A stretch of DNA of 61,720 nucleotides, filler included, from Hausera hauseri (lineage: Eukaryota): NCBI GenBank assembly GCA_046269625.1. It is 9 parts of 9 records of this genome, joined end to end, with 100 filler letters (N's around TTAATTAATTAA, not from the genome) between each part and the next. Parts side by side here need not be neighbours in the genome. Positions count along the whole stretch, not along the records: positions 24,657 to 30,811 come from JBJURY010133205.1; positions 30,912 to 35,193 come from JBJURY010659663.1; positions 35,294 to 41,976 come from JBJURY010075660.1; positions 42,077 to 46,287 come from JBJURY010698104.1; positions 46,388 to 51,092 come from JBJURY010468578.1; positions 51,193 to 55,315 come from JBJURY010747654.1; positions 55,416 to 61,720 come from JBJURY010114987.1; 2 more parts are not named here. One strand, given 5' to 3'. The stretch's first letter is position 1, and the number at the start of each line of letters is the position of its first letter. Below are positions 24,657 to 61,720 of this stretch, piece by piece. A program made the position numbers and the translations under genes. The notes under the pieces were generated by a model. It made no database searches. It saw only the letters and a list, made by a program, of their open reading frames with translations, and was not told the origin of the DNA.

Positions 24657-25493
24657 TAATAAATTTTAACCCGTGTACATCTGATATTAATATCGTCGGT
24701 GTGGATTGTTCTATTACATCTTCCCTTGATCTGGTATTAGTATGTAAATTGCTCGAATAACGCTTCCCAGTGGTCTCATTGAACTTTAACTCTTTGATTT
24801 TGATGAAATTGCAATCTTTCTTGGAGGGTGGCTTCCATACGATAACCGAACTTCGGAACGTACAAGCACCATTATGAATATGACATTTCTGATTTTCGGT
24901 GAATAGTTTGGTAACGCTATGAAACATCGCTTTTAAGGATCTTAACTCGGTTTTATAAAAATCTACGACTACTATTCCTCCTTCTTTTCCTTTCCCTATG
25001 TCATATTCTCCTCCGACGCAGTAACCAGTGTGCATGTTTTATTTTCCAACTGCTCTACTTATTTTTCCTTCTTGGGCTTCCAACTCCATACCGTCCCAAA
25101 CCATTTTACCGGTTATCCAGGCTCCTAAACAGTGTTGCCTATCTACGTTCATTTGGATCATGGGTGTAGTTGGTTTGATTATTAAAGAATGGTCGTGCAT
25201 ATTACCACAATGAAGTATTCTGCGGGATCTGCGTATCATGCATTCCACTGCATCCATTGCAATTAATTCGCGCTGTTGATATATAATATATTTTTTTCTA
25301 TTGTCTCGAGCTTATGCGGTCTCGCATCCTCACATGTTTCTAAGTCCATCAAGGAATATTTCTGACCCACCTTGAATTTGTCACAGTCGTATATGGAGAC
25401 TGCTCCTATCTGTTTTACTAACATCATTATTGTTAGGAAGTTGATTAACCAGCTGGATTCGTTTCCTTTCTTCGGGGAGATATTTCGTACCAT
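24657..25493 (-). pseudogene. Chuvirus-like envelope glycoprotein, N-terminal part
   Basis: Signal-like WLINFLTIMMLVKQIGA then VSIYDC..SLMDLETC, ECMIRRSRRILHCGNMHDHSLI, C.F....IVWKPP..DC. Confidence 0.75.
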
Positions 25494-25499
25494 ATCATC

Positions 25500-28400
25500 T
25501 AAATTACTGGTCCCTTTGCATTGTCCACTTTTCGAATAATTTCGTACATTTTATTTCTTTAGGTACCTTTTTCGCAGCTTTTCTAGCTAACCCAATTGTC
25601 TTGTTGAATTCATTTTCCCGGCGAGGGTTAGTTCTTACGGCTAAATATATCAACACCTTCCTTAATTCTTCCATCGTATTGTCTGTCGTGATTCTATCAA
25701 TTACTCTTTCATCAGGGAGGGTGCTTTTAGATAAATTGAATCGCGAAGTCTTCATCGTTCGGGCTATGCTATATATGAGTCTCTCTTTCTCGGATAATAT
25801 GTCGCCTTGAAGTCCGGTATAATTGACAATCCTTATTAAATCTTTCATTAGCTCAATTAATTCTTCGTTATCTAAACTAGGGGTTGGTATTGATAGTTGT
25901 CTCAGTTCCCTTATCAGGTCTGCATTATAGTCTATTACTTTCATTTTTCTTGGCCTTCCGACCGGTCGTTTCGGTTTCATCGGTAGTAAGGTTTCGCTTA
26001 GGGAGGGCTAGGTTTCTATTGTATTGCAGTTTATCATCATCCGTCTTCAAATATTCGAAGTACATTCGGCATCCTCAATACCCATGATTCTTCCGACGCA
26101 ATGCTCTGTATGCGCCTTCCTCATTGCTTCATCTTTGGTTTGCTCCCTAACAATTATTGCTATTATTCGATTTTCTTCGCGGGGTATAATCCCCACGTCT
26201 ATTAAGGATTCTAACTCATCTAAAATCTTGCCTCTGAAATAAAGTTGGTAGTTAACTCCTTCCTTGCCATATTTATCCATTCGGATGATACTTTCACTTT
26301 AATTTCCGTTTCAGGTTTGTTTCTCAATCGTTTAGCGTATTCTCTTATTAGAAGCTTGGGGACCGCTCTGTATGCGGTGTTTTCACTGGACAGCTTAGTC
26401 AAGGTTGGGATCAATTTCCTTAATCTATCTTCACTTATGTTTATTTTCACTACACTGCTCAGTTCCTTCTCAGCTAGTGTAGGATCAAGTAGCATTTGTA
26501 TGTCAAATTTCGTTTTCTGGGTACCAATGGGTGACTCAGATTTGTATAGGAGTTCTTTGACTCTGCTCGTTTAAACCTTGGAGGTATTCATCCCACTCGG
26601 CATCATTATATGCATCAGGTAATTCGCATTTCATTACTGCTGCGTGTTCTACTTGGACTCTTTCACGTATTTCTCTTATTTGCGGTTGCAATGTTTTCAC
26701 TATGGATACTCTAAATCCGTCTCCGTTTCCGCAAGCTTGTTGCATCAATGTTATTATTCAGCACATTTCTTCTGGTTGTATCAAGGCTTTCTCTTGGTAG
26801 CTGGTCAACTCCGCGATTCTGTCTCTTTGCCATCTCTGTATGAATTCTGTTTTGTCGTTCATTTCAGATTCCGTAAAGGAATACTTGTTTTTGTAGACTT
26901 CTGCTTCTCTCAATAATTCGCTTAGTTCGCGCTGTCTTTTCTCGGAGCGTAACCGGGTTTCTTTTATCAAACGTATGCGATGTATCAGTCGTCTGGCTAC
27001 TGTTTCTTCAATTCTTGCCATTTCTGTTAATAGTATGATTAATTTATGTGTTTGGTTTAATACTTCGTGTCCGGATCTATTGCGTCTATTAGCCTGCCTA
27101 TGAACTTGGCTTCGTCGCTCGTCAAATGAAGATCCTTCCTAATTTCCGTTAGTTCGGTATGGCAATGTAGATTGAAACCTGGTGTCCATTCGGCTGGATT
27201 CTGTAAATTTTGTAATGTTTGTGCCAGGGCGATTCGGTGATCGTTACATACTTCTAATGTTTCAATTTCCTGTGCGGATATTTCCTTCAGCGGTTTCTGC
27301 ATTAGGCCCTGTATCCCTTCCCAACGGATGTTCGCTAGACTTCGCTGAAGATCACTTAGTTTGTTTCTTTTTCGATCGATTTCCTTTCCCTCAATAACAC
27401 TATATATCTCTGTTAGTGTTGTTTGATCTTGATTACTACTCATAAATTCGAGATCTCGAAATGATTCGAATTTAATTCGCAATTTTGCTTCACCTTCCAT
27501 TGTGCCGATATCCAGAAACATTTCTTCTAATTGGTGTCTCATTATAGTCTCAACCACAGCGAATTCTCTTAGTCTTTCATTCATTATTTCTGCTATGGAA
27601 GGTAACAAGTCTATCCACTTCCTTATTTGTTTGGTTAACGCTGGTTTAGTGTAAATTATTTCGTCTAGCGTCCCAAGAGCTTCCTTTAGTTCATGATCAG
27701 GGCCCCTTACAAATTCCATGATATGTTTAATATAGTTGAATCCTTCTTTATACTCCTCTAGTTTAAGAAGACAAGCGCATATTATTCTCTGTGCTTCTGC
27801 TTTTTAGGGTGAACTACACCGCTCCTACAGTTGTTGACTTTGGTTCGTATTTCATTTTCTTTTTCAGTACCTATTTTTAAATCTAGATACCTCCGAGGGT
27901 TATCCTTTATCAGGTTGCACATTGCTATTAACTGGGAAATGTTCATTGGGTCTATGCCTAATGTTTCTAATTCGGCCTCTGTTAGTTCCTGCACTGGCTT
28001 GATATGACGATAATAAATTATCGCTTCTTCGATCCCATATACCAATCTTTTTAAATTGCGTATTACACGTTTCCGTTTTGGGTTCTGTTTTAGTGCCTTT
28101 AGTAGTCCTTGTGCTTGGTTTACTTCATCGAGAAACGGCTCGTATCTATTACCCAGTATTTTCGTAAAATCGATCTCACTCTTCATCCACAGTTCTAATT
28201 TATTTTGCCAACTGTTTATTAAATCTTGCGGCATTTGCTCATCTGTTGAAGACTTTGGAGATTCTAATTTAGTCTTCCGGGATCATTCAATGCCTCTCTT
28301 ATTTCAATTAGTTCATTTGCATTTTTCCGAGATTTTCTGATCTTTCCAAACTCAATGGGTGTTTCTTCTTCTGATTCCTCTTCACTAGGCAGTAATGGGT

Positions 28401-28900
28401 ATATTTCATTAATTTCATCAATATTTGAAATACTTATTGCTTCCTGAACGTCTTGGATTATAACAGGAGTATGTAACTCTGTTTCATCTCTTAAAACGAT
28501 AATGAAGTCTTCCGCTTTTTCTAAATCTTTTGTAATAGGGGATAGTGAACGAGTTCGTCACCTTCTCCTAAGTGAAAGGCTTCTACCCCTATTTTTCGTT
28601 ATTTTGACTATTAGTAGGCCAATGAATTCGCTGTCGACCTCGTCTGTAGTTTTGTCCTTCTCTTGGGACTCGACCTCGGTCTCTGCGTCCAGATCCACGC
28701 TTGAAGACTTAGTCGGCCTTTCCTCTTTCGCTGCTTGATTTAGGTTTCTTTTCCTGGCCATATTAGTGTTTCGGAGTGCTATAGCATTTTCGTATTCCGT
28801 TTTTGTTTCTCTTAACCCACGGTAAACTAGCATTAGCTGCAAATTTTCTTCGTACTCTTTCCTGGCCTTGATTATTTGTGGATTATTAGATTCACCCATA
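25500..28900 (-). pseudogene. ORF X: long Glu/Lys/Arg-rich helical region of unknown function with a ubiquitin-like segment and AT-hook; frameshifted
   Basis: Consecutive same-strand ORF fragments, each with a homologous segment in the same order at 56450-59920. Confidence 0.7.
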
Positions 28901-30300
28901 TTTTTATATGCCTTCGTAGATCTTGCATTTCGATAATCATGTTTATATCCCCTCGTTTTCCATATATACGTTCCAAATTATCCTTTATCGTGCTAGCCTT
29001 AGTAGTCTCTGAAAATGATACGCTTCGCGGATTAGGAAATGATCTAGCTATATGTCCTTCCTTGCCACATGAATAACAAATCAGATTCTCGTCTCGGCCG
29101 ATCCTTTGTCGTCCGTCTTCGTTCACTGGTGATTTGGGTCTGCCTGTTATTTTGTTTTGAATGGGTTGAGCTTTATTTCTATTTTCGAAACTTCGACAAT
29201 CTATATATCGGTTCTTGTTACCTCGGTCATTATTTTGGCTTCTGTCCGGATTATAACTTGTTTTGTATGTGTTCCTATTATCGCCAAAGTTTCTATTATC
29301 ATATCTCTTACTGCGATTAGTGGCATTCTGAGCTCTATTCTCATAGCCTCGGTCTTTATTATTATCATTAGATATTCTATTGTTTCGGTTTCTATCCCGA
29401 TTATCGCGATCATTATTTTGCTCATATCTATCACTCTGTCTAATGTATCTATCTAGTGCCATTTCTAAGTTCTGCGCTAACTGTAATGCAGTATCAAAAT
29501 TGTTTGGTCGAGCTAAAATTAGTTGTTTAACTAAGTCTCTGGACCATATACCATATTAACTGAGTTGTCATTTTGACATCTAAATCCGGTGGACTAGCCT
29601 TCTATGCCGCTTCGTTTTCCGCGCCTTTCTTTGCCTTTGCCACATTAGCTATCCTTAACATGCTCACGTAACTATTAGCAAGCTTCTTTAGTGCGAATGC
29701 AAATTGATTGACCGACTTACCCTTTTGTTGCGTTCTGTTTTGGAAGGCCATAAGCTTTTGTTGTAGGGTCACCGCTGGCAACAATTTACGATTCATGGAT
29801 CCTACTACGGCGGACCATGATTTCTTCTCGTCATTGGTGATTTCACTATAGGCGTATGCAGCCAGATTTTTTAAGTATAATGACAGTCGTTTAATCATAA
29901 CTTCGGGCGCAAGACTGGAACCTTCTGCGTGCAATTAATAAGTGCTTAAAAAATCATTTAACCCATCCGGGTCACAGTCATATGCCGTTATGTTCAAAAA
30001 ATCGAACGTAAAAATATCAAGTTTCTGTGCTATAGCGGGGTTGTCTGCTACCATCTTTATTTTATTCGGTTTATATGCTTTATGTCTTTTAGGAGGAGCT
30101 TTGAATTCTTTAACGAAGGTTAATTCAGTGTGGGATAAACAATGCTTGTCTATTGCCTTGCATTTAGTATAGAGTTTAATCCGCGTTTCCCTTTGATTAA
30201 GTTTCTCTATACCGTTTACTAATAAGTTTTGACACGAGTTGATAATCTCAATGTTTACTCTCGGATTAATCTTTACTTAATTCCCCTCTAACCACTTATG
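28900..30300 (-). pseudogene. Gag (capsid-like region, Asn/Arg-rich spacer, CCHC knuckle), frameshifted
   Basis: AYDCDPDGLNDF, LSLYLKNLAAYAYSEI, RTQQKGKSVNQFAFALKKLA (retrotransposon gag Q..ESV..F pattern), CYSCGKEGHIARS[F] at 29037-29078. Confidence 0.8.
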
Positions 30301-30416
30301 ATCCCAAGTTTAGACTCTTAACTCGTATTGTATAACAATTATTTGATGTATATTACGCTATTCGGCCGTATGTCTTTAATTGACTCTCGAAAGTACTGTC
30401 TAGCGAGGTACAAACT

Positions 30417-30434
30417 ATCCTGCTAGGGTCGCCA
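30417..30434 (-). promoter_or_regulatory. Primer-binding site TGGCGACCCTAGCAGGAT (tRNA-Arg-like)
   Basis: TGG start right after the LTR end; resembles the complement of tRNA-Arg 3' ends (...GGTCG-CCA). Confidence 0.75.
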
Positions 30435-30436
30435 AA

Positions 30437-30811
30437 TGTTATAGTTGGGGTGACCCTTATCGTCTCACACTGTAACAATAATTAAAGTCGATTTAAAAGG
30501 TTTTCTAAGCAGGTTAGAACTACTCGTGCTCGAATAGTTGGCTTGTACCCTAAGAGTTATCAGATACGTGAAGTGATGATGGTAGTGCTTGCAATGACAA
30601 AATGCTTGCCTCAATTTACCAATTCTTGTCCTAGCTATAGATTTCACGTTGATTTTACCCTTAGAGTAGTCAAATCGTCGTTAAGAGACGATGCGAAACT
30701 ATATAGGGATTTTAACAAAAGAAATTCAAATAACCTTTATTACTGCAAAATGACTACAAAAATTCAAGACAATCAATCAACGAATAAGTTGAGTTCAGAT
30801 CACTTGTAATA
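30437..30811 (-). repeat. Partial 5' LTR (R/U5) of copy A
   Basis: Ends in ...ACTATAACA two nt before the PBS; AATAAA at 30736-30741 (minus); alignable by eye with 55416-55752. Confidence 0.75.
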
Positions 30812-34241: not shown

Positions 34242-35193
34242 TCAGAACTGACAGTCCAGGCAGTGGCCAGGTGTACCGTCAATGTAGTAGCGGTTGTACT
34301 CCCCTAGTCTTCCATTTCCTGTGAAGCCCACACAGTCTTTGTACAATTGGTTGCAGGAAGAACATGTTATCACAGCAAAGGGTTTTCGGTTTCTGTCCTG
34401 AAAGATGCTGAGAATTTACTCCAGTTGATCTCCCCTGTAAATGATCATTTAAAAAAGTTACGTAAAATGTAATTTCATGTTTTAAATGAGAACAAGTCAA
34501 ACATCATTACCATCCAGCCATGCAAAGTGGGCCTTCTTCCTGAAAACTGGATCAGACACCAAAGATTTAAACCGCTTGCAGGTCAATGCCAAAGTGAGGT
34601 AAGCAGCATCTCCTTCTGTTAGGACCACCTCTTGGAGCACAGCCTCAAGTACATGCAAAGGCATCTGAAAAACAACCCAAATGTGAATTGTAAGCGTGTC
34701 AGAGAACGAACAACAATATGTATAAGAATTATTCTTACCTGTAAAATTGGTGGCATTTGTTGCACCTAAAAAGAGAAGACCACAAAAAAAAAACAGACAT
34801 AATACAGCATCAACACACATTTACATCTGAAACACACAAGGAAGTGACAATTCTTAATTATGGATAGTGTGACAAACCTCAAGGTCTGGCTTGGTTGTTC
34901 ATGCATAGGTGTGGTCCTCAGCACAATGACTCTGACAAAATATATATTTATACAATGTTTCTTAAAAACTAAAAGACAAAAACAGTCGGGTAATGTACAA
35001 AAACATAATTGATTCAATACTTGATTGTTGGATCATGATTGTCTGTCAAACACAAACCTAGTGCAAATGAGCACTGCAAATACACATAACAACAAAGAGA
35101 TTATTTAAAACTATATCTTACCTTACATTTTCTCCTTGCTTCAACCATTTCATCATCTCTCTTCCGCTTTCTCTCTCGTCGTAGTTCTTCTTT
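34242..35193 (-). pseudogene. Small spliced gene: basic coiled coil + F-box-like motif + two CxxC pairs; 1-bp frameshift in the last exon
   Basis: GT-AG exons 35122-35193 (partial), 34739-34765, 34511-34664, 34242-34434; ILQMPLHVLEAVLQEV...LALTCKRFKSLVSD; TCSSC...HCLDC. Confidence 0.6.
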
Positions 35194-35508
35194 NNNNNNN
35201 NNNNNNNNNNNNNNNNNNNNNNNNNNNNNNNNNNNNNTTAATTAATTAANNNNNNNNNNNNNNNNNNNNNNNNNNNNNNNNNNNNNNNNNNNNTATTAGT
35301 AATAATTAATTAAATGTGCAGCCAAAATGTACTTGATTTTGTTGAAATATATATTTATATCAACAATAGATTTATTCGGAATTAACGTTGTGTAAATAGA
35401 AAATAGGTGCAGGATAGCCCTCGTGGTAACTGAACAACCACACGAACTCACAGCGAGAAAAGTTTCACTAGCGCAACTTCCATAAATAAAATGTTAACAA
35501 AAACCAAA

Positions 35509-36110
35509 ACAGAACCAACAATCCTTAAAGATTGTAATGCAAGTTTAGAAGAACCAATGTTTAGAAGTAGTGAAACAGATGGGGTAAGATTGCCAAATGG
35601 AGGTATTACTGCAGCTCCAAATAAACTAACACAAACAAATCTCGCAAAAGGGATTACCGATGATAAGTTTCGTCAAAGGGCATATATAGGCATAAGGAAA
35701 TTAAAGCCTTTAGACAATTTCTCGCTTTTCCGCGACAGCGGATACACAAATTAAATCGAGCCATAGACTCCGTACTAAATGATACTCGATATCAAGCTAA
35801 ATGGGAATCATTTCTTGGTGTAAACAATTACCAGCGAGTAACCACAGAAATATTGTACAAAATTTGGGAAGATTTTTAATTTTTGACAAGCCGAATCTGG
35901 ATTTTTAGCAATCTATTTCCTATTACAAATAATTAAGGCCGTCATCCAAGCAGTAATATATGGCAATGAAATATGTACATTGACCGGATTTTCGTGTAAA
36001 ATATTGACCTCAATCATAACGTCTTTTGCAAAGTTTTTGAAAGCCTACGAAGAAAATAGATGGAAATCGGACGTAAAACGTCATGTCGGTTATCATAATC
36101 GTAAATGAAA
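35509..36110 (+). pseudogene. C-terminal part of the chuvirus-like glycoprotein, including membrane anchor region
   Basis: PTILKDC...PMFR.SETD.V.LPNGG; GIYRHKEIKAFRQFLAFP; FLAIYFLLQIIKAVIQAVIYG..ICTLTGFS; matches copy C. Confidence 0.8.
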
Positions 36111-36697
36111 AGAAACACCTATGTTCTTGTACAAGCGAAAATTTACAAAATCTAATACTCGAAGAAATAATTCAGATGATGACGAGCCTAAAGGAGGAGA
36201 AGTACTTTTAAGAACAGACAGACGTAAGTCGTAATCCGTCAGTAAAGCACCATTGCCTATGATATCCCCTACTTCTCCAGTCTATGAAGAATGTGACAAA
36301 CGGTCAATGAGCTCTTATCAGACAGAAATCTATAAAAAGACAATTAGTTTGGACGACCGCTACGAAGGAACGAGACGCTATGGAGTCATACTAAAAATGT
36401 GTTATCGACAGCCCATGGATGACCCCAGAATATTGTATTCCCCGAGAGAACCTTGGAATATAGAAACTAGATTGCCTGTCTGGGAAAATCCAAGGTTAAA
36501 AACCTTCCAAAATATAGAACCACACACTAACAATCGAGAACCATTAACTGAACATCAAAAACAATAAATTATATCCAAACGGAGAATTAAGACAATTATC
36601 AGAAAGCACAGTATCCTCCCCGGAAATTTGAATCAACGGACATAAAATATCGGCGACTAAACGCCCAAAAGTTGCATAAAACTGTTTTTGAACAGTA

Positions 36698-39600
36698 ATG
36701 GAAGGGAGACCCTTCTCCAAAATCATTATTGAAGACTGGGAAGTTTATGCGTTAATCGATACAGGTTCTGAGATGTCGTATATTAAAAACGATTCTATAC
36801 CTCAAACTCTAGGAGGACAGTTATACCAACCATCTACAAAGGATCCAGGAAGTACAGGAGCTTTTGGCCAAATGTTAAAACCCATGTTCAAATGGGACCC
36901 AGAAGTTCAAATAGTTAGACAGTTTTTCCGTCACGAATTTGAAGTTATGGAACAATTAACTGACGACGTAGTTCTAGGGTGTACTCTACTCAAGAGACTA
37001 CCAAATATAGCGATTGACTTGCAGACAGGAAAATTAATAGAAATCAGACCAAATAAAAGCGTAAGAAACTCTAAGGATAGAAAATTTGGAGAGGTGTGTA
37101 TACCAGTAGATGAAAATATTCCACCGAGAAAAGATAATAATTTACGCGCAAATTCAACAAGATGACGATCAACCAGTATATTTCGAATCAAAAGAGACAT
37201 TAAATCCGAATATAATACTTAGTAATATACTGACCAGAGTGCACTCCGGTCTTGTACCGATCAGAATAGCAAATAATGCACCGACTTCCATCAAGCTTTA
37301 TGTTTATACCACTCTAGGAAATATTTATAGAGGGTCGTCCATAACTATTAAAGAAAAGCCTTATAAGTATGCCGAATTCTCACTTCATGTCGAAGCTATG
37401 TTTTCCCCGGAATCTTACTGTCGATTCTATGAATTATTATGTCGCTATAAATGGATTATTGCTAAGGACGATGAGGATATTGGTAGGACGAAAGCATTAA
37501 AATTAACTATCCCGCTTAAAAAAGCCTAGTTCAAACGAAGAAATAAATCTTGAGGATCAGAAGATATCGAAATGGTATCCTCCACCTGATTCACTAAAAC
37601 CCGAGATAACAAAGGCGTTCAAACGGATGCTTAATCCGATATAATTAAGCCGAGCTATAGATCTTGGTATTCACCAATCTTCATGGTTAAAAAGAAAGGT
37701 ACTACGAAACATCGATTCTGCATTGACTACAGAGCGTTAAATAATCCTATGATGAAAGATTTCCCATTGCCATCAGTAAAAGAGGCTCTAGACAAACTCT
37801 CCAGAGAAAAATGGTTTACCACTCTGGATTTACAATCGGGATATTGACAGGTACAAATCGAGGACGAAGACCGATATAAAACAGCGTTCAAGATACATGA
37901 TGGTGTTTATGAATTTAATGTCATGCCATTCGGTATTACTACCGGACCAGCCATATTTAAAAGACTAATGAATAAAATGTTGGTGTAATAAGACCATGCT
38001 TTTGCATATTTAGACAATGTAATGATAGCGTCAGAGGAACACNNNNNNNNNNCAAAATATCAGATTGCGTGGAACCACAAAATCGGAAAAAGCTAAGACA
38101 CTGGCTACGTTTATGTGGATATTATGACACTTATGTACCGAACAACTCGAAAATAAATGTACCGTTATATCACCTTCTTAAAAAAGGAATTAAATGGAAA
38201 TGGACAGACGTCTAACTGAAAGCTTTCGACGATATGAAAAAGATATTAACAAGTGCACCAGTTTTTCAATACACAGACTTTAATTTACCTTTTATAATCA
38301 AGACAGATGCCAGTAAAAAAGATATTGGCCATAAATTAGTGCAGAAAGGAGAAGATGAAGAATTAAAATACCCAAATGCTTATGTAGGACGATCCTTGAA
38401 GAAGGCCCAGAAAAATTATTCTGCTACCAAATTAGAAACTCTAGCCGTAAAATTTGCGCTTCGACACTTCAACGTTTACGTGTACGGGCAGAAAATTGTA
38501 ATTGTCAGTGATCACAAAGCCGTTACGACTTTAAAAGGCCCACAAATAACCCAACATGCAGACTTAACAGATGGATCGAAGAAATCTCTAGATACAATAT
38601 TGAATTCTAGTATAAGCCAGGAAATAAACATGTAGATGCCGATGCACTATAAAGACTAAAGACCAAACAAGTGCAATCACTGTAATGAAGAAAAGTCAGC
38701 CTGAAGAAATAATAGATCGCCAACGTGCCTTAACGACGGATGAAGCGATTAAAATCTCAACCGAACAAAGAAAGAATAGAATTATCCAACAGATTATAGA
38801 ATTTGCTGAGAAGGACATAGTACCAAAAGGACGAAAATTATAAAAATATCTACGTAGACACGGACACAAATATTGCGTTTTGAACAACAAGGGTCTCGAA
38901 AACCTTCTATATTATGAGCGAAAAGAAAAAAAGCTGATAATTATTCCGAAAAACTTACGAATTAAGGTTTTTATGTCGGAACATGACTCATACTTAGCCG
39001 GACACATGTAGTGGAAAAAGATGTTACAGATAATACTGAATAAATACTTTCGGCTCAGTATCTATATTGATGTGAAAAATTGAGTAAATGCTTGTGAAGT
39101 ATATGCCACTAAACAAAAAAGACAAAGAATTATATAGCAAAATTAAAACCAGTCAATGGATATCGTAGGACCGCTTCCTACGACCCACAGAAACAATAAA
39201 TATAGATTAACTTGTATTGATCGACTAACTCATTTTGTCGAATTGATAACGTTAATTGATCAAAAGGCGGAAACTTTGGCAGAAGCTGTAGTAAGAATCA
39301 TTTGCCGATATGGACCTCCAGACCAAATATTAACAGATCGAGGAAGAAATTTTATAAGTGAACTATTTGAGAAGATTATCAAAATATTTGAAATCGAATG
39401 GGTAACTAATATCGCGTATCACCCTCAGTGTAATGGAATGGTTAAACGAATGAATGCAATTGTCATACGCATACTATCAACAGTAGTAGCTAAGGACCAA
39501 AAAGATTGGGACAAATTTTTAGAAGGAAATCAGTTTGCAATCAATACCACGCCACATCTATCAACAGGATTTACACCATATTTTATGATGTATGGACGCG

Positions 39601-39990
39601 AAGATATGTTGCGAACAGACTTAGGAATGACGCCATACACAGTCAATCCCGAAGATTTAGAACAAAACTTCGCAGAAGTATTACAAACGCGACTACAAAA
39701 ATGTTGAGAAATCACCAAGGAGTTATCCCAAGAATATCAAGAACAGTTCAAAAAGTAATACGATGAGAAAGTGAAACCGCATGATTTAGAACCAGGAAAT
39801 TGGGTTTATGTACATTATCCAGTTGCCAAGAAAGGCACGTTATTAAAACTGACTCGTACAGGCACAGGACCGTACGAAGTGACTAGAGTCACGCTAACTA
39901 CCAAGTACATTAACAAAAATGGGAAGGAAGAAGTCTTATCAATACAAAGAGTTGTTAAGACGGATATACGTCCCAATAAACGTTACAATT
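36698..39990 (+). pseudogene. pol: Ty3/Gypsy pol: aspartic protease, RT, RNase H, integrase with GPY/F module; many stops and frameshifts
   Basis: ALIDTGSEMSYI; SPIFMVKKK..RFCIDYRALN..PLP..LDLQSGY*Q..KTAF..YEFNVMPFG..AYLDN; TDAS..YSATKLETLAV..SDHK; HDSYLAGH..C; DIVGPLP..TDRGRNF..YHPQCNG; GPYEV. Confidence 0.95.
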
Positions 39991-41438
39991 TACATCAACG
40001 CGAGATAAAAACTTTCTCAATAATTGGTAGACCGTTATCATATCTTCAGATAGTTTTAGCACGATCACTAATTGCTTCTAATATTCCAAGAACACAAACT
40101 CAATGGTGGGACGATGAAACCATGTTAGAAGACTTATATGGAATTCGGAAGAGCGGATCAAAGCCGAAAAGTATTATAACGAAAAAGTAAACAACGGCCG
40201 AAGAGATCCAAAAACGAGAAGACACTATTTTGTTACAATCAATGAAGGTTCATTACTTTTCGCCCGACTCTCTGTGTGTTGGATTTAAAACTTAGAGACC
40301 ATATCACGATTTCGGAAGATTTCAAGTTGTACTATATGATGTGACAACAAAATAAGTAAAAAATTGCGATTTTTAACCCGGAGATTATACACAGTGCTGT
40401 GACAGATTTTGGACATATTTACATCCTTACTTATCGACTATACTTACTAGACTCATCAGAAGTCTATATCAAAGTAAACTCACAACTTCAATTGGTCATT
40501 CTCACTTGGCCTAGACGATTCGAAGTGAAACCCAAAGAAAGGCTACAATTCACTGACCCAAATATAAGGCTGTTAGATGAAAACATCAAAAGGATCTCAG
40601 TAAACCAGGGAAAACAATGCATCTAAGTAGATGGTTGAACAGGATTAACTCTTAGTCAAAAAATTAGTATTGTTTTCGAAGCAGTAAACGGAAAAGCTCC
40701 GAACATGAAATACTGTTCTCTTCATGCCGGTGTGTAACACCCATGTTGTAAGCTATCAGTAAACCAAGAATTCAAAATAAAATTTTATCTATATGAAGTA
40801 CGACGGGATAAACCGAGCAAACATTTGCAAACCTATTACCCATAGAATAGAATATGGCGGATTCCAGTATAAACGACAACCGAAAAACCGACAACTCGAG
40901 TTAGTGCTAATACCAGACCCGTTATATCAAGCAGTGTGCCTAAAAGAGAATTTGGAAGTGTACATACTAAATATTCGGCACATCGATTTAAAATTGTGTT
41001 CTTTGTAGAAAAACTAAATTACGACATACATATAAGCTGTCGAACAACGTATAATAATCAAATTGGAAAACTACTTAAGAACACTCAGAAGACGGAATGC
41101 AATTTGTTAAAACCACAATCCGATTACATAGTACAAGTATATGCAAAGAATAAACAAAATCAATTACATTGCGTACCTTAAACGAAATTCGTGAAGAATC
41201 GCATGTATACGAAAACATAGACGACGAAGTCACAACTCCATTCACCATACAAGCCCAAATGAGATTAACCGCTTTACCAATCATATCGATTTTCGTACTA
41301 CCAACGTTTGTTCTCATTATATTAATTGCGATTTTTCGGTTAGTTGCCAAAAATTGTCAGTCTAAGCGTCCTAAAACTATAGAATTGGAAATTGGGGAAT
41401 TGGCACCCCCTACTGACCCGTATGGTAAAATAACCTGA
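39990..41438 (+). pseudogene. Putative second type-I membrane protein with an FN3-like domain downstream of integrase; fragmented
   Basis: Hydrophobic signal-like FSIIGRPLSYLQIVLARSLIA after IN; CNLLKPQSDYIVQVYAKN (41098-41151); TM LTALPIISIFVLPTFVLIILIAIF; short tail ending at 41438. Confidence 0.55.
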
Positions 41439-41519
41439 CAACTACAGAGCGGGTTATTCTATCATCTAACTAAGAATTTGTTTCATTTTAAGACCACCCT
41501 TTGTTGTAAGATTAACCCT

Positions 41520-41976
41520 TACTGTTTATTTCTTAGACTGATGAGTAAAGAGAGAGTTATTAAAACGGGTACTGGACGACCTATGATCGACGAATCGCGA
41601 TCTATCCAAGAACGAGAACGATGTAGTATCGATAAATCACCAAAACGCCGACTTAGTATCGACGAGTTTCTGCAGAATTACGCTACCGTCTTTCTTCCAA
41701 ATTCAAAATCCATATATCTAGAAATTCATAACGAATGGCATGAGAAAACCTTCATGAAGTATGATCAGACCAGCATAATTCCTAATAATTTAAAGGGTAT
41801 AACGGAGGAAAATAGGATTGTTTACCTTTACGCCATGAGAAAAGAAAAGGATGCCCGAGCATACTCACTCAAACAGATGATCAAGTACGAACATCATCAG
41901 AATATTTATATCCACCTGGTAGATGGTGATATATACTATCGGTTCAAAAATCAAGAAGGCAATAGGGACTTAGTAC
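41520..41976 (+). CDS. Hypothetical ORF, open to the contig end, probably part of the retroelement
   Basis: Over 150 uninterrupted codons from MSKERVIK; same strand and composition as the element; no motif recognised. Confidence 0.45.
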
Positions 41977-46387: not shown

Positions 46388-49300
46388 CAAGATCTAAAGC
46401 ATGGTTCAACAATACATGTAATATTCCGACTAAGAGGGGGAAGTGAATAGCTGTAGACGAACTCGAGGATCGGATTGCAGAGAGGCGAAAACATAAATGA
46501 CTTGGCAACCATTCGACGAAAATTGATGGAAATGAATTTGAACGAGCAAGAATATAGTCTGTTCCAACAAAGGTACGAGAAAACCTTTTCAGAGCTACAG
46601 AAGAATTTGGGGATGTTAGCAGCTGCTGAAAGGAAATTAAAAAGAAAAGAAAATGTTACCCTACTGGAAAATGAAACGGAAAAATTGGATGAACAAAACG
46701 AGAAAATCAATGCGATTATTTATAGAAGAAGTCTACGGGAAAGTAAACCAGCAATTAATGTAACAAGAGGTACGGATAGTAGTGAAAAGAAAAAGTCATA
46801 TTGCCGAAATTACAAAAATTGGAACTCCCGAAATTCGGCAGTATTGTCACAGAATTCGACAAGTGGAAGAGAACGTTCGACACTTGCGTTCATAAAACAC
46901 AAATGTCCGATATTCATAAACAATTGCAATTAAATCAATGTCTTTACGGAGAACCGAAGAGGTTAATTGAGAATTTTGATCTATCAGAAGAGGGCTATAA
47001 AGCCGCAATGGAAAAACTTAAATCTTATTACGGAGGGGAACAACGGTGTTACGCCGCCTTTTTGACCGAGGTGATGGGCTTCAAACCAATTAGAGAAGAA
47101 GATATCGTAGGTCTAGATCGGTTTTTCGCATTGATAGATGGTATAGTAGTAAGGTTACAAAATTTGGGGAGGAAAGAAGAGTTAGGTGGAGGACTGTTGT
47201 ATCAAAGTTTAATGGAAAAACTCCCAGAGTCTATAGTATTGTTATGGGAAAGAAATGTTGCTGAAAAAAGGTCAAATCGAACAGTTGAGCAGTTAAAATT
47301 ATGGGTAGAGTTGGAAGCAAGTGTCCGAGGAAATACAATCGAAAGAGTCAGGCATAAATACCTTTAATCCAGGAAGAGATTATGAGTCTAATCGGATATA
47401 TGATGAAAATAAGTTGATAGTTCGAAAACGATTTCTTACTCATAATAAAAATCATATACCTTCTAAAGGGCATGAGTTTCAAAGAAAATCGCAAAGAAGT
47501 TTTTACGTAGACAAAGATGTCAACAGGAAGGAGGCACCAATTCGTAGCAAAACGGAAAAAGATAACAGTATTAAATCAAGGAATAAAACCGAAAACCAAA
47601 TATGCTGGGAGTTTGAGAAAGGTGGAGATTGCAAATTTGGAAAGAAATGTAAATATCTGCATATTAGTGAGGGAAATAGTAAAATGCAAGTTTGTAAGTA
47701 TTATCTGAAATGAAATTTCAAATATGGAGAAAATGTCGTTATGCTCATGAACCGCCGTCAAAGAAAAATACATCTAAAAACCAACAAAGAACATTTTACA
47801 CTATACAAGGTGATGAAGGTGAATGCGGAGATAAAGCTACGGAAGCACCAATCAACTCTTATATAACTCGGCGATCAGAAGAGACTCCAACAGGAAATAA
47901 GATAGCCTTACGTACTGTGGATGTGTGGTTGGAGAACGGAGAGCGAAAAGTAAAAGTGTGTATGTTATTGGACGACGCGAGCATGGAATGTTTTGCAAAA
48001 CGCTCTGTTGTTGAACAATTACAATTAGACGGCAGTCAGGAAAGTGTATGTTATGGTGGTAGGTGGGGAAACAACAAAGTCAATAATGGGACGGGTAAAA
48101 ATGAATCTACGAAGTAAGAATGGAAAAGTTAACATCCTATTTGAGGCATTAGTTCTCCATTATCCAACTGGGAAAATGATGGCTGTGAATTGAAAAATTG
48201 AGAAGAACAAATGGCCACATTTGAGAAATATAAAGTTTGCCGTTCAAAAATCGCCGAAATCAGTCAATAGAATAATCGGTGCGAACTACATGCATCTACA
48301 TAGATCTATAAAAGAAATAGCGGGAAATATAAACGAACCGGTAGCCAGATTGACTCCACTCGGATGGACGTGCGTTGGGATAATCGGAGATGAAAAGAAA
48401 AAGGCAAGAACCAATTTCATTAGAACATTCTGGAGTACAACCGATGAAGTACAAGAAGATTGGAACAGACTATGGGAAGCAGAACAGGGATTCCTGTGTT
48501 GAATAGCTCGGATGTCAAATTATTAAAGAAAGTGACGAGCGGAATAAAATATGAAAAAGAAAGGTTTGATGTTAAGTTACCTCGGAAGACAGAGAAACAT
48601 CCATACGTCAGTAATCTTGATTCATCATGGATGGCGAAAAGAAGATTGAATCTATTAATAAAGAAACTGGATAAAGATATTACAGTGAAAGAGGAGTATA
48701 ATAAGGTCGCGATACCACAAAAATTCGGATAGTATTTGACGCAGCTGCAAAGAGTAAAGGAAAATGTCTAAATGACTTCTTGGAGGTCGGCCCAAAATTA
48801 CAACTTGACGTAGTTGACATTTTACTCCGAATGCGTCGCAACATGTATGTTTTAATCTGTGATATACATGAAATGTTTCTCCAAATTTTAGTAGATCCAA
48901 CAGATAAAAAATACTTACGTTTTTTATAGAAAAAGAATGATACGAATTCAACAGATTGGTGTACGGATTAAACAGTTCTCCTTTTTCAGCGCAGTTGGTG
49001 TCCAGATTAAACGTGGAAAAATTTGAAAATGTGTATCCGAAAGCAACAGAAACTATAAAACACTCTACGTATATGGACGAATGCATAGATTCAGCTCCAA
49101 CAGAAGAATAGATAGTTGAATTGTAGCACGGATTAAATGTGATATGGAACAATGCAGGAATGGCTCCACACAAATGGACAACGAACTCAGAACAACTTAT
49201 CGCCGATATCCCATGTGACAAAAGATCGAAGGAGTATAGCGTATCAGAGAAAAACACATTGGCCACAAAGACGTTGGGAATGAAATGGAAGGTAAAGGAG

Positions 49301-49775
49301 GACAAATACGTATTTTATAAAAGAGATGCTAGCGAACAAACAATAACGAAAAGGACCTTACTAAGCGCAGTCCTTAAAATGTACGATCCCCTGGGATTTT
49401 TAAGTTGCTATACTATAATCGGAAAAATGATAATGCAAGAATTGTGGATCGGGAACTATGAATGGGATCAAAAACTCCCGGACCAAATATCAAACAGGAT
49501 AAAATCATGGATGGAGGAAGCTCATCTACTAGACGAAATAGGAATTGAAATGTACCTAAGATTAGACAAAGATGAGAACTGGGAACTACATATCTTTTGT
49601 GACGCCTCGAGACTAGGTTACGGCGCAGTGGGTTATCAGAACAAGGAAAAAGAATGGGAACTTTTTCAAAACATTGGTAGTTGCTAAAGCGAAAGTAGAT
49701 CCAGTCAAATCGATAGCGATACCAAGATTGGAGTTATTGGCGGCTTGTGTGGGAGTCAAACTGAATGAAAGACGA
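46388..49775 (+). mobile_element. BEL/Pao LTR retrotransposon gag-pol fragment, decayed, truncated before integrase
   Basis: LPKLQKLELPKF..EFDKW..F..K..L..CL.GEPKRLI (DUF1759-like Gag); MLLDDAS protease; PVARLTPLGW; YMDE RT motif; TKTLGMKW, TKRTLLS..YDPLGFL; LHIFCDAS..YGAV; AKAKVDP..IPRLELLAA. Confidence 0.92.
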
Positions 49776-50300: not shown

Positions 50301-50393
50301 GTTACATAGATGTTATTGCTTTTGAAAATGCCATGGACAACGAAGAGAACTATTGATGGTTTAGTGCTCGAAGCTGAAATAGAAACATTATAC

Positions 50394-54880: not shown

Positions 54881-54989
54881 TAGAACCACCCGGGGACGTA
54901 CACTCTCAGTATCAAATCGACGAGACGTTGCAGTTGATGAGTTTCCGCTGTTTAGGGTGTAGATATTATTTCTCGCATCTACACTCAGA

Positions 54990-55315: not shown

Positions 55316-55415
55316 NNNNNNNNNNNNNNNNNNNNNNNNNNNNNNNNNNNNNNNNNNNNTTAATTAATTAANNNNNNNNNNNNNNNNNNNNNNNNNNNNN
55401 NNNNNNNNNNNNNNN

Positions 55416-55752
55416 ACTTGCCATCTTATTCTTATCGATTGATATTCTTGCAATTGTAACGTACGGTATTATTTAGTTGTTAATAAACTTGTATTTAAAA
55501 TTCTTGATAGCTTTTTCGTCGCTCCTTACGAGGGACTGGTACCACATTAAGTATTAAAATTTCGTATAAAATCTAGTTAAGTCGAGATCCATTTAAACTC
55601 TGCAAAGGACACGCACGCAGTTCGTACATCATAAATTAGTGCAAACATTCTAACGAGAATGTTAGAACGTACCTGCCAAATAAATATCTCTAATTGAAAT
55701 TAATTCATTGTTATAGTTGGGTGTTGGATAGGGCCACCTTCAACTACTAACA
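55416..55752 (+). repeat. Partial 5' LTR (R/U5) of copy C
   Basis: AATAAA at 55482-55487; ends ...CTAACA two nt before the PBS. Confidence 0.75.
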
Positions 55753-55754
55753 AT

Positions 55755-55772
55755 TGGCGACCCTAAAAGGAC
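55755..55772 (+). promoter_or_regulatory. Primer-binding site TGGCGACCCTAAAAGGAC (tRNA-Arg-like)
   Basis: Same position and near-identical sequence to the copy A PBS. Confidence 0.75.
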
Positions 55773-55899
55773 AGTTTGTACTTGCTAGACTTGACTTTTA
55801 GCGAAAAGTAACGACATATCAGCGATCAGCGCTACCACATCGAATAATTTANNNNNNNNNNGTGATCTTGAAATTCGGGATTGATAAGAAACCTTAGTA

Positions 55900-58800
55900 T
55901 TATAACGACATACTATTGAATTCAGAACGAATATTGACAGGCATAAGTCGGACATTAGTTTAAATTTAGTCCCAGACGATAAAGAAAATATTAACATACG
56001 CGAAATACGCAACAAAGTATATACATAAGGTAAGACGTTGAGCAGACGCACCTTATCTGAAACGAATTTAGCTAATATTAAAACTAATAATTTAGACGCT
56101 GTCGAACAACTTATTGAATTTATAATCCCCGATAAACGAATTAAAACTCGTAAGCTAATTAAGCAAAGTCTAATAAATGTAGAAAACATGATTGAGAATC
56201 AAGCAGTTCCGCAGAAGTTGGATATCTTTAAATTTGACTCTGAATCTGCCGGCGTACGACGGAGACCCGGACGGATTTAATGAATTCTTAAGAACTTATA
56301 AGTTGCATGCAGAAAGTGCTGGACTTGCATGTAACGTAATGATTAAACGTTTATCATTATATTTGAAAAATTTGGCCGCTGATGCTCATAGTGAACTCAC
56401 TGATGATGAGAAGAAATCCTGGTCCTCTCTCGTAGGGTCATGTCCAAATCCACAAAGCGTTTCGTTTGTTGAGCCTAGTAAAACTAATGTAGTTAGGAAT
56501 AAAAATTTAGAAGCCGTTTATGGCATCCGTAAAGACAAAGGTATGATCATAGACATACAAGATTTACGACATCTCCTAAAAGCTCAATCTGATACCAGTG
56601 ATCTAAAAGTCTTAATGGCCAAGAATGGGTATGAGCACAAGTTACGATTGTTAGAAGTATATCATGGCCTACGCAAACCAGAAACGGAATACGAACTTTC
56701 TATTGCCCCGCCAAAGCTTACCGATATGGCATGTAAAAAGAATGTTCGAGCGGTTCATAAAGAAGCAGGGGAAACGGAAAATCCTGAGACTCCGGATGAA
56801 GTAGACTTAGACGCAGAAGCGGAATATATGATAGAAAAAGTAGACAAAACCATAGAAGTTGACGAAGAAAAAGAATTTATGGAACCACTAATACTCAAAA
56901 TTACGAAGAATAGAGGCCGTAGTCCATCATTGAAGTGGAAACGTAAAGATCGTTCACAATCTTCAATGAATAAAGAAAAGTCGCGCAGGGCAAAAGAAAC
57001 CGAAAATGCTCTAGAAAGCGACGTAGAGTTCAATTTGAATACCCCGGAAACCGGGCTAGTTACCCTTGTCGGAATAGAAAAATTAATAAATGAAATAAAT
57101 GATATGTCGATTGCTTATTAGTGAAGAAGAGGCAGACCAAAGTGAGGAATTCGATCGTAAAAAGTGAAAAATCGGACGTTCATGGAAAAACACTGATGAA
57201 TTAAAATGAGGATTATTTGTCACGATCCAGACGAACTGCAGCAGAATCTAGAAAAACTTAAAGAAATGAGCGAACAAGTAGACATTTCCAGTAAGAAGCA
57301 GCAGTTCGTACAGAGATTGTACAAGAAAATGAAGTTAAGGAAAGTTAATTGAAGCTATGGATCTAGAACAACCTGCGGAGGTATCCCCGAACACAATAGC
57401 GAAAGAAAACATGAATTAGAAATGTGGATGAAAAGTGGAGTAAAATTACCGGAAGCATAAGACAAAACCACTGAAGACATTGAAGTAAAAATAAATAAAG
57501 CTCAAACATTATTGACTACGTTAAAAGCCAACCGAAAACTAAAGAGAGCAACACGTAACCTAGAACGTGTCATGAATGAAATTAGATTCGAAGTAGTTGA
57601 ACGACTCAAAGAAAAACCGGCCCAGGAAAGAAATGAAACTGACTTAGACATGCTGGGTATATACTCAATAGATATTCCGCTCTTAGTGGAAATGATAAAA
57701 ATCGCTTCCACTGCATCAAAACAATATACTAGCCTGGAAAATCGTATTAAGATTGAAACCGAAAAACTGTCGCAAATATACAGCTTGAGGAATATGATTA
57801 TGAATGTGAATAATGAGGAAACACAAAACGTAATTAAGGCTTGTATCCTTGAACTCGAAGAGTACAAAGATGAGTTTAATTATGCCAAATGATTATTGGT
57901 TTTATTAAATGTCCGGATGATGAATGGGAAGACGCCTACAAAATACTAGATGAAGCAATACTGGCAAAACCCATGATTGCTAATCAGTTAATGAATGATC
58001 CCGACTAATAATGAGACTGAGTGAACTAGTAGAGTGCCGTATAAAAGAATTTCTCGAAAGTGAGCCTACATTACAGAAGCAATTATAAGAAAATGCACGA
58101 AACCTAGATACAGTGAGAGCGGAAATAGACATTAGAACTCAATTTGATGCATTACGCCAATTACAATTTATGAAAACCAAACAAGAAATGACGATACTGG
58201 ACAACATATATAAAATGATCGAAGAAACGAACTTTACAGAGAAGTAGAACATGATCTGTAACTTCCATCCGAGATTAAAGAATGTTCGCTTGGAAGGAAT
58301 CCAGCATTTGACATCTAAACATATCAATGAGATCTCAATTCGGGATGTCGAAACTTTAAATGTTTGTGCGGAACATCGATCAGATATACAAGAGGCAATA
58401 GAATTACTACACAAACCCCAAGAGTGGATGATCGTAACAGATCAAAGGTGTCATACGAACTGACCAAAATAAGAAATGACCAGCACCTCAGCTTTGATGA
58501 CGTGAAGTTTGTAAAGAGGTTGCTCGATGTTATAGATCCAGACTCGAAAATTATTCATGAGATGTATGAATTAGCATTACTAATGGTGGAAATGGCAGAA
58601 ATTAGTGATGAAAAAATAAGACAATTGATGCCTCAGATACGGCGAGTCGAAGAAACTTTTATTAAAACCAAACAGAGAGCGATAAGATTAGACGACCTGG
58701 TTAAAGAAAGACATTGTTTTCGAACAACACAAATGAATAAAATGCAACGGAAATTTAGCGAATTAAGAGGATCAACACGGGATGCGGAAGCGGCTCAGCT

Positions 58801-59920
58801 ACTGGACAGGCTAACACTTGATTACAGACCTCCAGATAGTGAAAACGAACCAGAATGGGATGCATACTTAGACGCAATGATTGCTGAGAATCCGAAAACC
58901 ACGGGATCGGAGATTTAGTGTGGAAATGCTTTTAGATTCAGCGCAAACTGAAAAGGACTTAATTAAGTTAATTAATGTAAATCTTACCGAATCTCAATTA
59001 AAACAGCTAGTTTCTACCCTAACTTCTAATAAAGGAATATGCTAAAGTATTAAGGACCACATCCGAATACACAGTTAAAGTAAAAATATCGTCTGACCGG
59101 ATGGACGAGAAAGAGCAAGAGTATACTAAGCGCTCTGTCGTAAGAGACGTGGTACAGTGGCTAATGAATAATGGTTGCGCAAGTGAAATGGACTATAAAC
59201 TTTACTTTAGCCGTTGAATATTAGACGAACTGGAACAATTAATTGACGTCAGAATTATCCCAGGTGAAACGAATCGAATAGTATTGACGGTCGCTACGGA
59301 GGAGACAAAAAAGAGGCCACAAGGACGGCTAAAGCAGATCATTGTGCAGGACGAATCGTGGGAGTTCGAGATATAGCAATGTACTTTAAATACTTGCAAA
59401 CGGACGAAGGCAAAGAACAATTTGATAAGAATTTAGTGCCATCTAGCGAGACCGCACCAGTTATAGCAAATCAGAAGCGTCTTGTTGGTAGACCGCGACA
59501 GGCTCGAGAAGAGACTGATTTTAATGGGATTTAATTAGGGATTTGAGGCAAATGTCCATACCAACACTTAGTCCAGAAAACGAAGAGCTGAATGAACTTA
59601 TGAAAAACTTGATACGCATAGTAAACCACTCTAGTCTCTGTGGCGATATATTAGATGAAAAAGAGAAATCTATAAACCATGCAGCCAAGACAATGAGTAA
59701 TTTACGATGTAAATCATCTAGGAGCACATTAAGCAACGAATCGGTGATCGAAAAGATAACGGTAGAAAACACTATAAAAGAGTTAAGAAAGGTGTGACTA
59801 TATTGAGCCATTAAAACAAACCCTGCCAGAGAAGATGAACTTAACAAGGCCACTAGTCTAGCGCGAAGGGCTGCCAGAAAGCTACCCCGAGACGTAAGCT
59901 GGTCTTTAGTAATAGTAGAT
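55900..59920 (+). pseudogene. Gag (internally deleted) continuing in frame into ORF X
   Basis: PAYDGDPDGFNEFL..LSLYLKNLAADA..W; ORF 56192-57121 runs from Gag into ORF X without a stop; later fragments match copy A. Confidence 0.75.
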
Positions 59921-59928
59921 TCGAAGAT

Positions 59929-61720
59929 ATGTTACGAAATTTAACTGGGAATAATCGGGGAAATGAATCAAACTGGCTAATTAATTTTCTAACTGCGATG
60001 ATGTTAATAAGACAAATAGGAGCGGTTACAATATATGACTGTGCCAAATTCAGACTTGGCCAAAGATATTCATTAATGGATTTGGAAATGTGCGAAAATG
60101 TGAGACCACATAAATTAGAAACAAAAGAAGAAAGATATGTACTGTATCAGCAACGACAGTTAGTCTCATTGGATGAAATAGAATGTATGTTGCGACGATC
60201 TCGCAGTATTTTTCATTGTGGATTAATACACGTACATTCATCTATAATCAAGCCGACGACCCCACTAATTCCAATGAACTTAGAACTCCAGCATTGTAAG
60301 CAGGCTAGAGAGACAGACAGGCTGAAGTTGAACGTCATGGAATTAGAAATGCAGCAAGGGAAAATAATCAGAACATACAAAGTAGCAGCAGGAAGATTAG
60401 ACATGCATACGAGTCACTATAACGGTGCAGAATACGATACTGGAAAGGGATTGCAGTCAAACATAGTGGTTGTGGATTTCTACGAAACCGAGATGCGCAC
60501 ACAAAAAGTGATGTTTCATAGTGTTACTAAGCTCTATACGGAAAACCAAAAGTGATACATCCAAGACAGCACCTGTTCTTTTAGGATTTCAGTAGTAATT
60601 TGAAACCTCCAGACAAGACCGATTGCAATTTCATTAAAATTAAAGAACTGAAGTTTAACGAAACGACAGGAAAACGCTACGTAAGTAATACGGATAAAAA
60701 CTCAAAAATGCGAGAGGATGTAGCGGAACGGCATACACCTACCATATTAATTTCCGATACTCACGGATTAAAGTTTGTGAAGAAAGACGTACTCACAAGG
60801 TGTGATGTATTAATGTACGCCACCAGTTATGAAGCATTCTTTGTAGCTGAAACCGAGGTAAATACCAGAACGTTCAGGCTTGAGACTCAAGATATTCGAA
60901 TTGAAGATTATTTGAAGAATAGAGACGATTATTTCTACTACAAGGGATAGGCCGGAATTACTGAGTTATACCATAAGATGAAAACGGATGACTGTAAACT
61001 AGACTTAGAAGCCATAAGAACCAAACTGGCTTTAATATATGCCAATCCCGAGCTAGCGTCACCAATAATTCCGATAAAAGAAGGCGTTTTTGGACGAGTG
61101 ACGGGAGAAGTTCTGCTGACCTACGAATGCGAGAAGAAGGATGTACCTATTAATGTGGAAGAGAAAAGGTGCATTCAAGAACTTCCAGTGATATATCAGG
61201 ACGTACCGAGATTGGTAACGCCGATTACGACAGTATTACTGGCAAACTCTATATAACCGACGATTCTGAACGATTGTAAGACCAGTTTGGGAGAACCAAT
61301 GTTTAGACATAGCGAAACCGATTGGGTAAGTTTACCGAATGGTGGGATAATTACGCCGCCCACCAAGTTAACAGGAACAAATTTAATAAGCGGAATAATT
61401 GATGATAAGTTTCAAGATGCTGAAGCAAAAGTTACTTATCGGCTAAAAGAAGTAGAGGCATTTAGACAATTTCTCGCTTTCCCACGCCACCGTACGCATG
61501 AATCAAACAGCGCGATGCATACAATACTAGAGGATTCACGTTACCAAGCGAAATGGGAAACGTTACTTGGTGTTAACTACTATCAAAAGGTGACTACTGA
61601 AATATTGTATAAAATTTTGGGAAGGTTTCTGATATTCGGCCGAGCCTCATCAGTATTCCTAGCAATTTATTTCGAAATTCAAATGGTTAAAGCGATAATT
61701 CAAGCGGTAATAAATGGATA
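59929..61720 (+). pseudogene. Chuvirus-like envelope glycoprotein, nearly complete, with a few stops
   Basis: IYDC..SLMDLEMC; LYQQ..IEC.LRRSRSIFHCG..HSSII; GEVLLTYEC..DV..RCIQELPVIY..LVTPIT.VL; DC..PMF; FRQFLAFP; hydrophobic C-terminus FLIFGRASSVFLAIYF. Confidence 0.8.

Follow-up and report, generated by a model that had tools for sequence, protein, structure and literature searches.

Does the Ty3/Gypsy retroelement found in the genome assembly of Hausera hauseri (GCA_046269625.1) carry its envelope gene (env) upstream of pol, and what does it encode beyond the integrase? The window analyzed here (the whole stretch of DNA, 61,720 nucleotides [nt] with filler) is made of nine contigs joined by N spacers, and adjoining contigs may be neither genomic neighbors nor from one organism. 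Three contigs hold copies of the element, namely, copy A (24657-30811, minus strand), copy B (35294-41976, plus strand), and copy C (55416-61720, plus strand), all of them decayed, with many stops and frameshifts in each. Very probably, these are copies of one multicopy Ty3/Gypsy lineage with the order gag, spacer X, env, protease (PR), reverse transcriptase (RT), RNase H, integrase (IN), and second membrane protein; the lineage is likely a flatworm GAG-ENV-POL errantivirus, and its ancestor likely encoded one polyprotein.

The original prediction held that copies A and C run from a long terminal repeat (LTR), primer-binding site (PBS), and gag through approximately 3.4 kb of non-pol coding sequence to a glycoprotein, and this description stands. 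By alignment, the two are collinear from the region ahead of the PBS through env, and neither has PR, RT, or IN, with 0 tblastn matches from 55 integrase-bearing pol proteins. All 55 of these proteins match copy B, which gave 155 matches. The env family is PF24664, the Monjiviricetes fusion glycoprotein, matched at an E value of 1e-28 in C when two stops are read as X, at 9.1e-12, 1.3e-11, and 6.8e-10 in three pieces of C, and at 1.4e-6 in A. Judged by its sequence, env is of the class III gB/chuvirus type and would be a fusogen. Comparison of the env sequence with solved structures gave no match, and scans of metagenome and viral contigs with env gave no locus.

Copy B opens, as had been claimed, with the C terminus of a C-type env (69.8% nt identity over 463 nt; E = 9e-53) and then enters pol through an open linker. 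The linker stays open in the env frame: its 200 codons hold 3 stops, where 13.7 would be expected (P = 0.0015), and the other two frames contain 10 and 19 stops. In the pol region that follows, matches were obtained to RVP (E = 4.8e-5), RVT_1 (E = 2.1e-21), RT_RNaseH_2 (E = 1.7e-28), and rve (E = 8e-13); a gap of 10 N's lies inside it at 38043-38052. Assignment to Ty3/Gypsy is based on the gypsy-type order of the pol domains and on the CCHC-bearing gag downstream of the PBS in copy A.

The original prediction depended on the env-pol junction (36110-36700) not being confined to copy B, and this was examined by aligning the contigs of one public run (X1), which may derive from the source sample, to both halves of B. 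There were 8,241 contigs on 35294-38040 and 10,142 on 38053-41976, with 30 of 30 bins covered in each half. Most of the contigs were less than 95% alike to B, which indicates that they represent other copies of the family. Among the listed pieces, tiles at the env-pol junction (36049-36349, 36200-36533, 36243-36748, and 36642-36926) and behind IN (39790-40109, 40028-40357, and 40162-40507) are approximately 80 to 87% alike to B; they form one overlapping series that starts at 36049, crosses the linker, and reaches the protease, and another between the IN tail (39790) and 40507. No listed piece crosses a whole junction. The variant sites at 36010 and 36076 are each set back by more than 60 bases from contig ends and thus join the anchor region to the junction tiles. 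A nested insertion, chimera, or misassembly unique to the env-pol junction of B is unlikely, since diverged copies tile it.

Relatives of env were sought with phmmer, using the C-terminal half of the C env (with X at two stops) against a database of 1.84 billion representatives. This gave 251 relatives, although word-indexed protein searches with env found no match. The best relatives (27 to 34% identity) are long single chains. In a domain scan of 13 long or top matches, 10 have a protease domain after env at an E value of ≤0.001, 5 of which also have RT, and none has pol before env. The order in P0062 (2,627 amino acids [aa]) is knuckle, env, PR, RT, RNase H, IN, and env also lies ahead of pol in P0064, P0078, P0089, and P0069 and in the cluster mates P0212 (4,844 aa) and P0215 (3,003 aa). 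Because these intact relatives are single chains, we infer that the ancestor of the window copies was likely expressed as one polyprotein. The window RT has as its six best full matches env-first proteins or a cluster mate, at 48 to 53% identity. An IN scan of metagenome and viral contigs returned one distant contig of 1.8 kb (29%), which was uninformative. P0062 corresponds to NCBI HBK71150.1, filed under a Flavobacteriaceae metagenome-assembled genome, and is probably a eukaryotic contaminant of that bin. The polyproteins P0212, P0064, and P0070 each have several aspartic-protease-like motifs (five in P0212, two of them after the integrase), and ankyrin and C2H2 domains are also found among these three.

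The predicted order of gag, spacer X, env, pol, and an extra membrane protein is thus supported by the copies, by the multicopy junction, and by the env-first relatives. The predicted length of more than 13 kb is consistent with a sum of at least 13.6 kb, which spans three copies: the stretch from LTR end to env is taken from A, env from C, and the remainder from B, with approximately 150 nt added for the RT gap plus two LTRs. The internal region measures at least 12.9 kb, and the 3' end lies outside the available copies.

Approximately 2 kb of coding sequence follows IN in copy B, as originally proposed, and it includes a hydrophobic helix at 41259. This open reading frame (ORF) begins in the IN frame, which has 6 stops over 437 codons, compared with 35 and 24 in the other frames. 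Its parts are a likely fibronectin-III-like ectodomain, a Thr-rich stretch, the helix at 41259 as a transmembrane segment, and a short tail. Each of the five env-first proteins reaching beyond IN carries, in that part, a signal-like helix, then approximately 230 to 400 aa of ectodomain, and a second helix near the end; at the same threshold, none of the 55 matches of the IN search has a helix after IN. Four of the five relatives share a fibronectin-III-like motif with C-x(17-20)-C-x2-L-x-P-x-T-like spacing. When the 1,894 six-frame fragments of the window were ranked by a profile of the domain in these four relatives, positions 40873-41178 came first (E = 2.9e-4), and the next fragment had an E value of 0.68. 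Leave-one-out profiles retrieve the omitted domain at E values of 3.5e-4 to 0.11 among approximately 3,100 pieces. The slot and topology of a second membrane protein are well supported, and a fibronectin-III fold of its ectodomain is likely. Behind this protein, the frame at 41541-41976 is unbroken within an otherwise decayed copy, with 27 to 49 diverged X1 contigs at the listed sites.

Spacer X, approximately 3.4 kb between gag and env in A and C, shows 29 to 62% aa identity between the two copies. Over 792 aligned codons, they differ at 40, 29, and 57% of codon positions 1, 2, and 3, a pattern which suggests that X was once a selected protein. No Pfam or NCBIfam family scored above the cutoff in X. 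Its Atlas neighbors are unnamed bacterial helical or TPR-like clusters, which were dropped as leads for low recognition. The spacer of P0062 ranks the X pieces of A and C first and second among the 1,894 window fragments (E = 0.031 and 0.49), and these two pieces are homologous to each other. An AT-hook-like GRPR motif lies near 25960 in the X of copy A, and a GRP-basic motif is likewise found ahead of env in four relatives. X is longer than the spacers of most relatives (210 to 600 aa where a knuckle marks the start), and the spacer of P0075 is of similar size. The Bcl-2-like pre-env regions of relatives do not match X.

At the 5' end, both A and C have a ...TAACA terminus followed by a PBS that starts with TGGCGACCC. 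Its complement, ending in GGGTCGCCA, resembles the tRNA-Arg 3' ends tabulated in supplementary file 1 of Chary and Hayashi (eLife 2026, PMC13524379). No second LTR and no long direct repeat were found within the window. In the gag of copy A, the matches were to Retrotrans_gag (weak; E = 0.015) and zf-CCHC (E = 1.3e-4). The gag of copy C lacks approximately 755 nt including the knuckle, a loss that the original prediction did not mention. The features of the three copies are collected in the table.

Table. Features of the three element copies, with coordinates along the window
Feature	Coordinates	Strand	Basis
Copy A, 5' LTR, putative 3' portion with ...TAACA end	30437-30811	-	Aligns with C 55421-55850 over ~450 nt
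Copy A, PBS, tRNA-Arg-like	30417-30434	-	Starts TGGCGACCC; complement ends GGGTCGCCA
Copy A, gag, interrupted by stops and a frameshift; single CCHC-type knuckle (29043-29078)	28980-30276	-	Domain matches, translation
Copy A, spacer X, ~1,130 codons, helical/charged, broken	25500-28980	-	Collinear with C
Copy A, N-terminal part of env, signal-like hydrophobic stretch at 25448, ends at contig end	24657-25493	-	PF24664, hydropathy
Copy B, env C terminus, membrane anchor near 35890, broken	35390-36030	+	69.8% nt identity to C; tblastn with env of relatives; hydropathy
Copy B, linker from env anchor to protease, no LTR or gag	36030-36690	+	Open env frame; tiled by diverged contigs
Copy B, pol (PR-RT-RNase H-IN, Ty3/Gypsy order), GPY motif in IN tail, broken	36692-39900	+	Pfam matches
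Copy B, post-integrase membrane protein, broken	39990-41438	+	IN frame, weak fn3, profile of relatives, multicopy
Copy B, open frame, 145 codons, ATG to contig end	41541-41976	+	No family match; multicopy
Copy C, putative LTR end (to 55752) and PBS (55755-55772)	55416-55772	+	Sequence; alignment with A
Copy C, gag with internal deletion at 56440	55862-56500	+	A 29797 to 29042 without counterpart in C
Copy C, spacer X, broken	56500-59925	+	Collinear with A
Copy C, env from signal-like stretch to membrane anchor, broken, cut at window end	59929-61720	+	PF24664

Several observations weigh against the reconstruction of one lineage with this order and a second membrane protein. The label "LTR" is founded on the -CA end, the PBS, and the A/C homology, and the copies include only the 5' ends. 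With a difference of 30%, copies B and C may represent separate subfamilies. Phylogenies of RT plus IN, RT, and IN (39 proteins with both domains, six near-duplicates excluded; the IN tree is a quick version) gave no resolved placement of the window copy. Its branch in the RT and IN trees is long and unresolved and falls outside the env-first group, and the nearest proteins by path in the IN tree are two non-env proteins. A single RT clade of the window copy and the env-first group was not rejected (p-AU = 0.245). For the second protein, the fn3 match in the post-IN piece of B (E = 0.024) is below the Pfam cutoff, and copy B has no second signal above the hydropathy threshold. The motif that anchors the profile was picked after it had been sighted in the window, so that the profile was not blind. 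In 9 of 10 rows, the language-model neighbors of the P0214 ectodomain (residues 302 to 575) belong to fn3 clusters; the Atlas scores are 0.80 to 0.82, and one third of shuffled proteins reach 0.8.

Some of the evidence bears on rival accounts of the same copies. The stitched element may never have existed, if B belongs to an env-pol lineage and A and C belong to a pol-less gag-X-env lineage with an env shared by recombination. No single contig or listed piece covers gag through IN, and hence none covers both junctions; A and C end within env, and the gag of C is partly lost. However, the identity of env between B and C (70% nt) matches that between A and C (65%), relatives unite all four parts (gag, env, pol, and the second membrane protein) within a single chain, and X of A and C takes the top two ranks with the P0062 spacer, all of which makes two separate lineages highly improbable. 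The gene order could also be real with the genes in separate frames, env being started from its own conserved Met and pol being reached by -1 ribosomal frameshifting where the linker ends. Env and protease do lie in different frames in these copies, and a single ORF in this family is our inference. Furthermore, a Met is located approximately 15 codons ahead of the env hydrophobic stretch in A and C, with a frame change just upstream of it in both; the heptamer A-AAT-TTG stands in slippery register at 36624-36630 in B, a few codons before the env frame closes; and Chary and Hayashi describe three ORFs in the parts of their article consulted (PMC13524379). However, the frame changes of A and C are opposite in direction and are accompanied by many others, the -1 frame of B stops before the protease, and the nearest relatives are single ORFs. 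We therefore consider expression from separate frames improbable.

The post-integrase protein might instead be unrelated cargo, captured independently in each lineage and with no role in the particle. The five ectodomains resemble one another only marginally in pairwise comparison (best E = 0.001), the post-IN ectodomain of P0078 lacks the shared motif, and these elements do gain variable cargo (Bcl-2-like, ankyrin, and extra proteases). Against this, the same slot and the same signal-ectodomain-anchor layout recur in five of five proteins, and the leave-one-out profiles recover each omitted domain at the E values given above, so that independent capture appears unlikely.

The original prediction further suggested a possibly undescribed enveloped lineage, and this part did not stand, since env between gag and pol has already been published. 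Nematode, bryozoan, and flatworm Ty3/gypsy elements carry a gB-type env, linked to chuviruses, as GAG-ENV-POL (PMC13524379, which also cites Sacco et al. 2022 for nematode noncanonical endogenous retroviruses with flipped env/pol and an RNA-virus-type glycoprotein), and in planarian Burro, gag is followed by an in-frame env and then by pol (Arkhipova and Yushenova 2019, PMC6431247). The gene order is thus not new, and the window holds another family of a published architecture and not a new lineage. In PMC13524379, ENV-POL matches are common in five free-living flatworms and nearly absent from the 24 parasite rows shown; the host of the window copies is probably a flatworm, and a parasitic host would be a range extension.

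Among the published elements, compared here through the consulted parts of each source, the window env is closest by eye to those of Schmidtea. Smed_errantivirus_5 and _6 share with the window family a Ty3/gypsy pol, a gB/chuvirus-type env, the gag-env-pol order, and multiple copies. They span 16.9 and 18.0 kb, apparently including 3-kb flanks, which implies ORFs of 11 to 12 kb, similar to the 10.8 to 12.2 kb summed for the window family. Schmidtea env rows and the window share TP..L.S...G(M/L)(R/K)F..K...C...Y.T.Y when compared by eye, and by the same comparison the window pattern TPTILIS..GLKFVKK..C..MYATSY is like the domain I-II motifs of Schmidtea env. A word search of the 230-row env table located YATNY, YETNY, TNYKG, and MRF in the six Schmidtea rows and in no others, and the nematode (19 rows), bryozoan, and branchiopod env rows compared are, by eye, unlike the window env. 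The Schmidtea elements are intact with no PBS assigned, whereas the window copies are decayed and have a PBS. Neither "fibronectin" nor "polyprotein" appears in the main text of PMC13524379, where chromodomains are the only domains named behind integrase, and the parts of it consulted hold no description of spacer X for the Schmidtea elements.

Burro/GYPSM1 resembles the window family in having env between gag and pol and a long gag-env coding region, and it also carries cargo domains. As described in the consulted parts of PMC6431247, it is 25 to 30 kb long, with an internal region of up to 25 kb, two to three knuckles, and MATH, Ubl, Bcl-2, BIR, and ankyrin domains; its env is called gypsy-Env/mononegavirus-like, so that the fusogen class may differ, and a second membrane protein is not mentioned there. 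The window family has one knuckle, unlike Burro, and MATH, Ubl, Bcl-2, BIR, and ankyrin domains were not found in the 31 window pieces scanned, in which decay lowers sensitivity. Identity with Burro was rejected, as its cargo domains were not found. Mosquito BEL/Pao elements with a chuvirus glycoprotein (Dezordi 2020, cited in PMC13524379) share the glycoprotein family with the window copies, but their pol is BEL/Pao and that of the window is Ty3/Gypsy. A BEL/Pao origin was rejected, as DUF1759 and Peptidase_A17 are absent from A, B, and C. The mosquito element is named Anakin. In Oikopleura Tor, env follows pol, unlike the window env, which precedes it.

The other contigs of the window hold unrelated features. 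On a separate contig, 46457-49700 (plus strand) is a decayed BEL/Pao element with DUF1759 and Peptidase_A17 within 46786-49684 and, near 47600-47750 where gag ends, cysteines in a CCCH-like spacing. An AT-rich contig of 4.2 kb (20315-24556, minus strand) encodes, with short interruptions, a PHD-like zinc finger (zf-HC5HC2H, E = 1.9e-17) and then MOV10 helicase domains, and it could be a PHD-MOV10 fusion or two tight neighbors. Positions 1-20214 contain a multiexon gene on the minus strand, which we take to be like vertebrate EML5/6, with a Tc5/pogo transposon remnant at 833-1543; this gene suggests that the assembly mixes fish with invertebrate. A mariner-like DDE remnant (45097-45426) and an F-box fragment (34500-34820) were also found.

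If the ancestor was translated as a single polyprotein, its topology, processing, and functions can be sketched by analogy, and all of them are stated here conditionally. Gag and X would be made in the cytosol, an internal signal would direct Env into the endoplasmic reticulum (ER), and the Env anchor would bring the chain back to the cytosol, where Pol would hang on the Env tail and could be packaged through it, without a Gag-Pol fusion. A second internal signal past the integrase would export the fibronectin-III-like ectodomain, which would have an anchor of its own. Cleavage of the polyprotein by signal peptidase and by the protease of the element may then yield Gag, fusogen, Pol, and the second surface protein. 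Env would fuse membranes for cell-to-cell spread, and the second protein would be present on the same particles or cells as Env, where it would most likely be an attachment protein or a host-modulating or decoy protein.

The post-IN membrane protein is the apparently undescribed part of this architecture; it was not found in the literature searched, and the figures of PMC13524379, Grohme 2018, Sacco 2022, and Repbase lay outside that search. The single polyprotein yielding capsid, envelope, and enzymes provides a testable model for such elements. In herpesviruses, a gB-type fusogen depends on partner proteins both to attach and to be triggered. A module kept past the integrase across relatives whose env is only approximately 30% identical is a candidate for the choice of target cell by gB-bearing retroelements. 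We tentatively propose, as a possible but doubtful extension, that this env-first Ty3/Gypsy clade has a two-protein entry apparatus, in which a gB-type fusogen and a fibronectin-III type I protein that binds or mimics a receptor would both be cut from a single polyprotein; this chain would pass through the ER membrane four times, and Pol would be held by a tether between the two proteins. If true, this would parallel, in a retroelement, the split between attachment and fusion seen in herpes- and paramyxoviruses.

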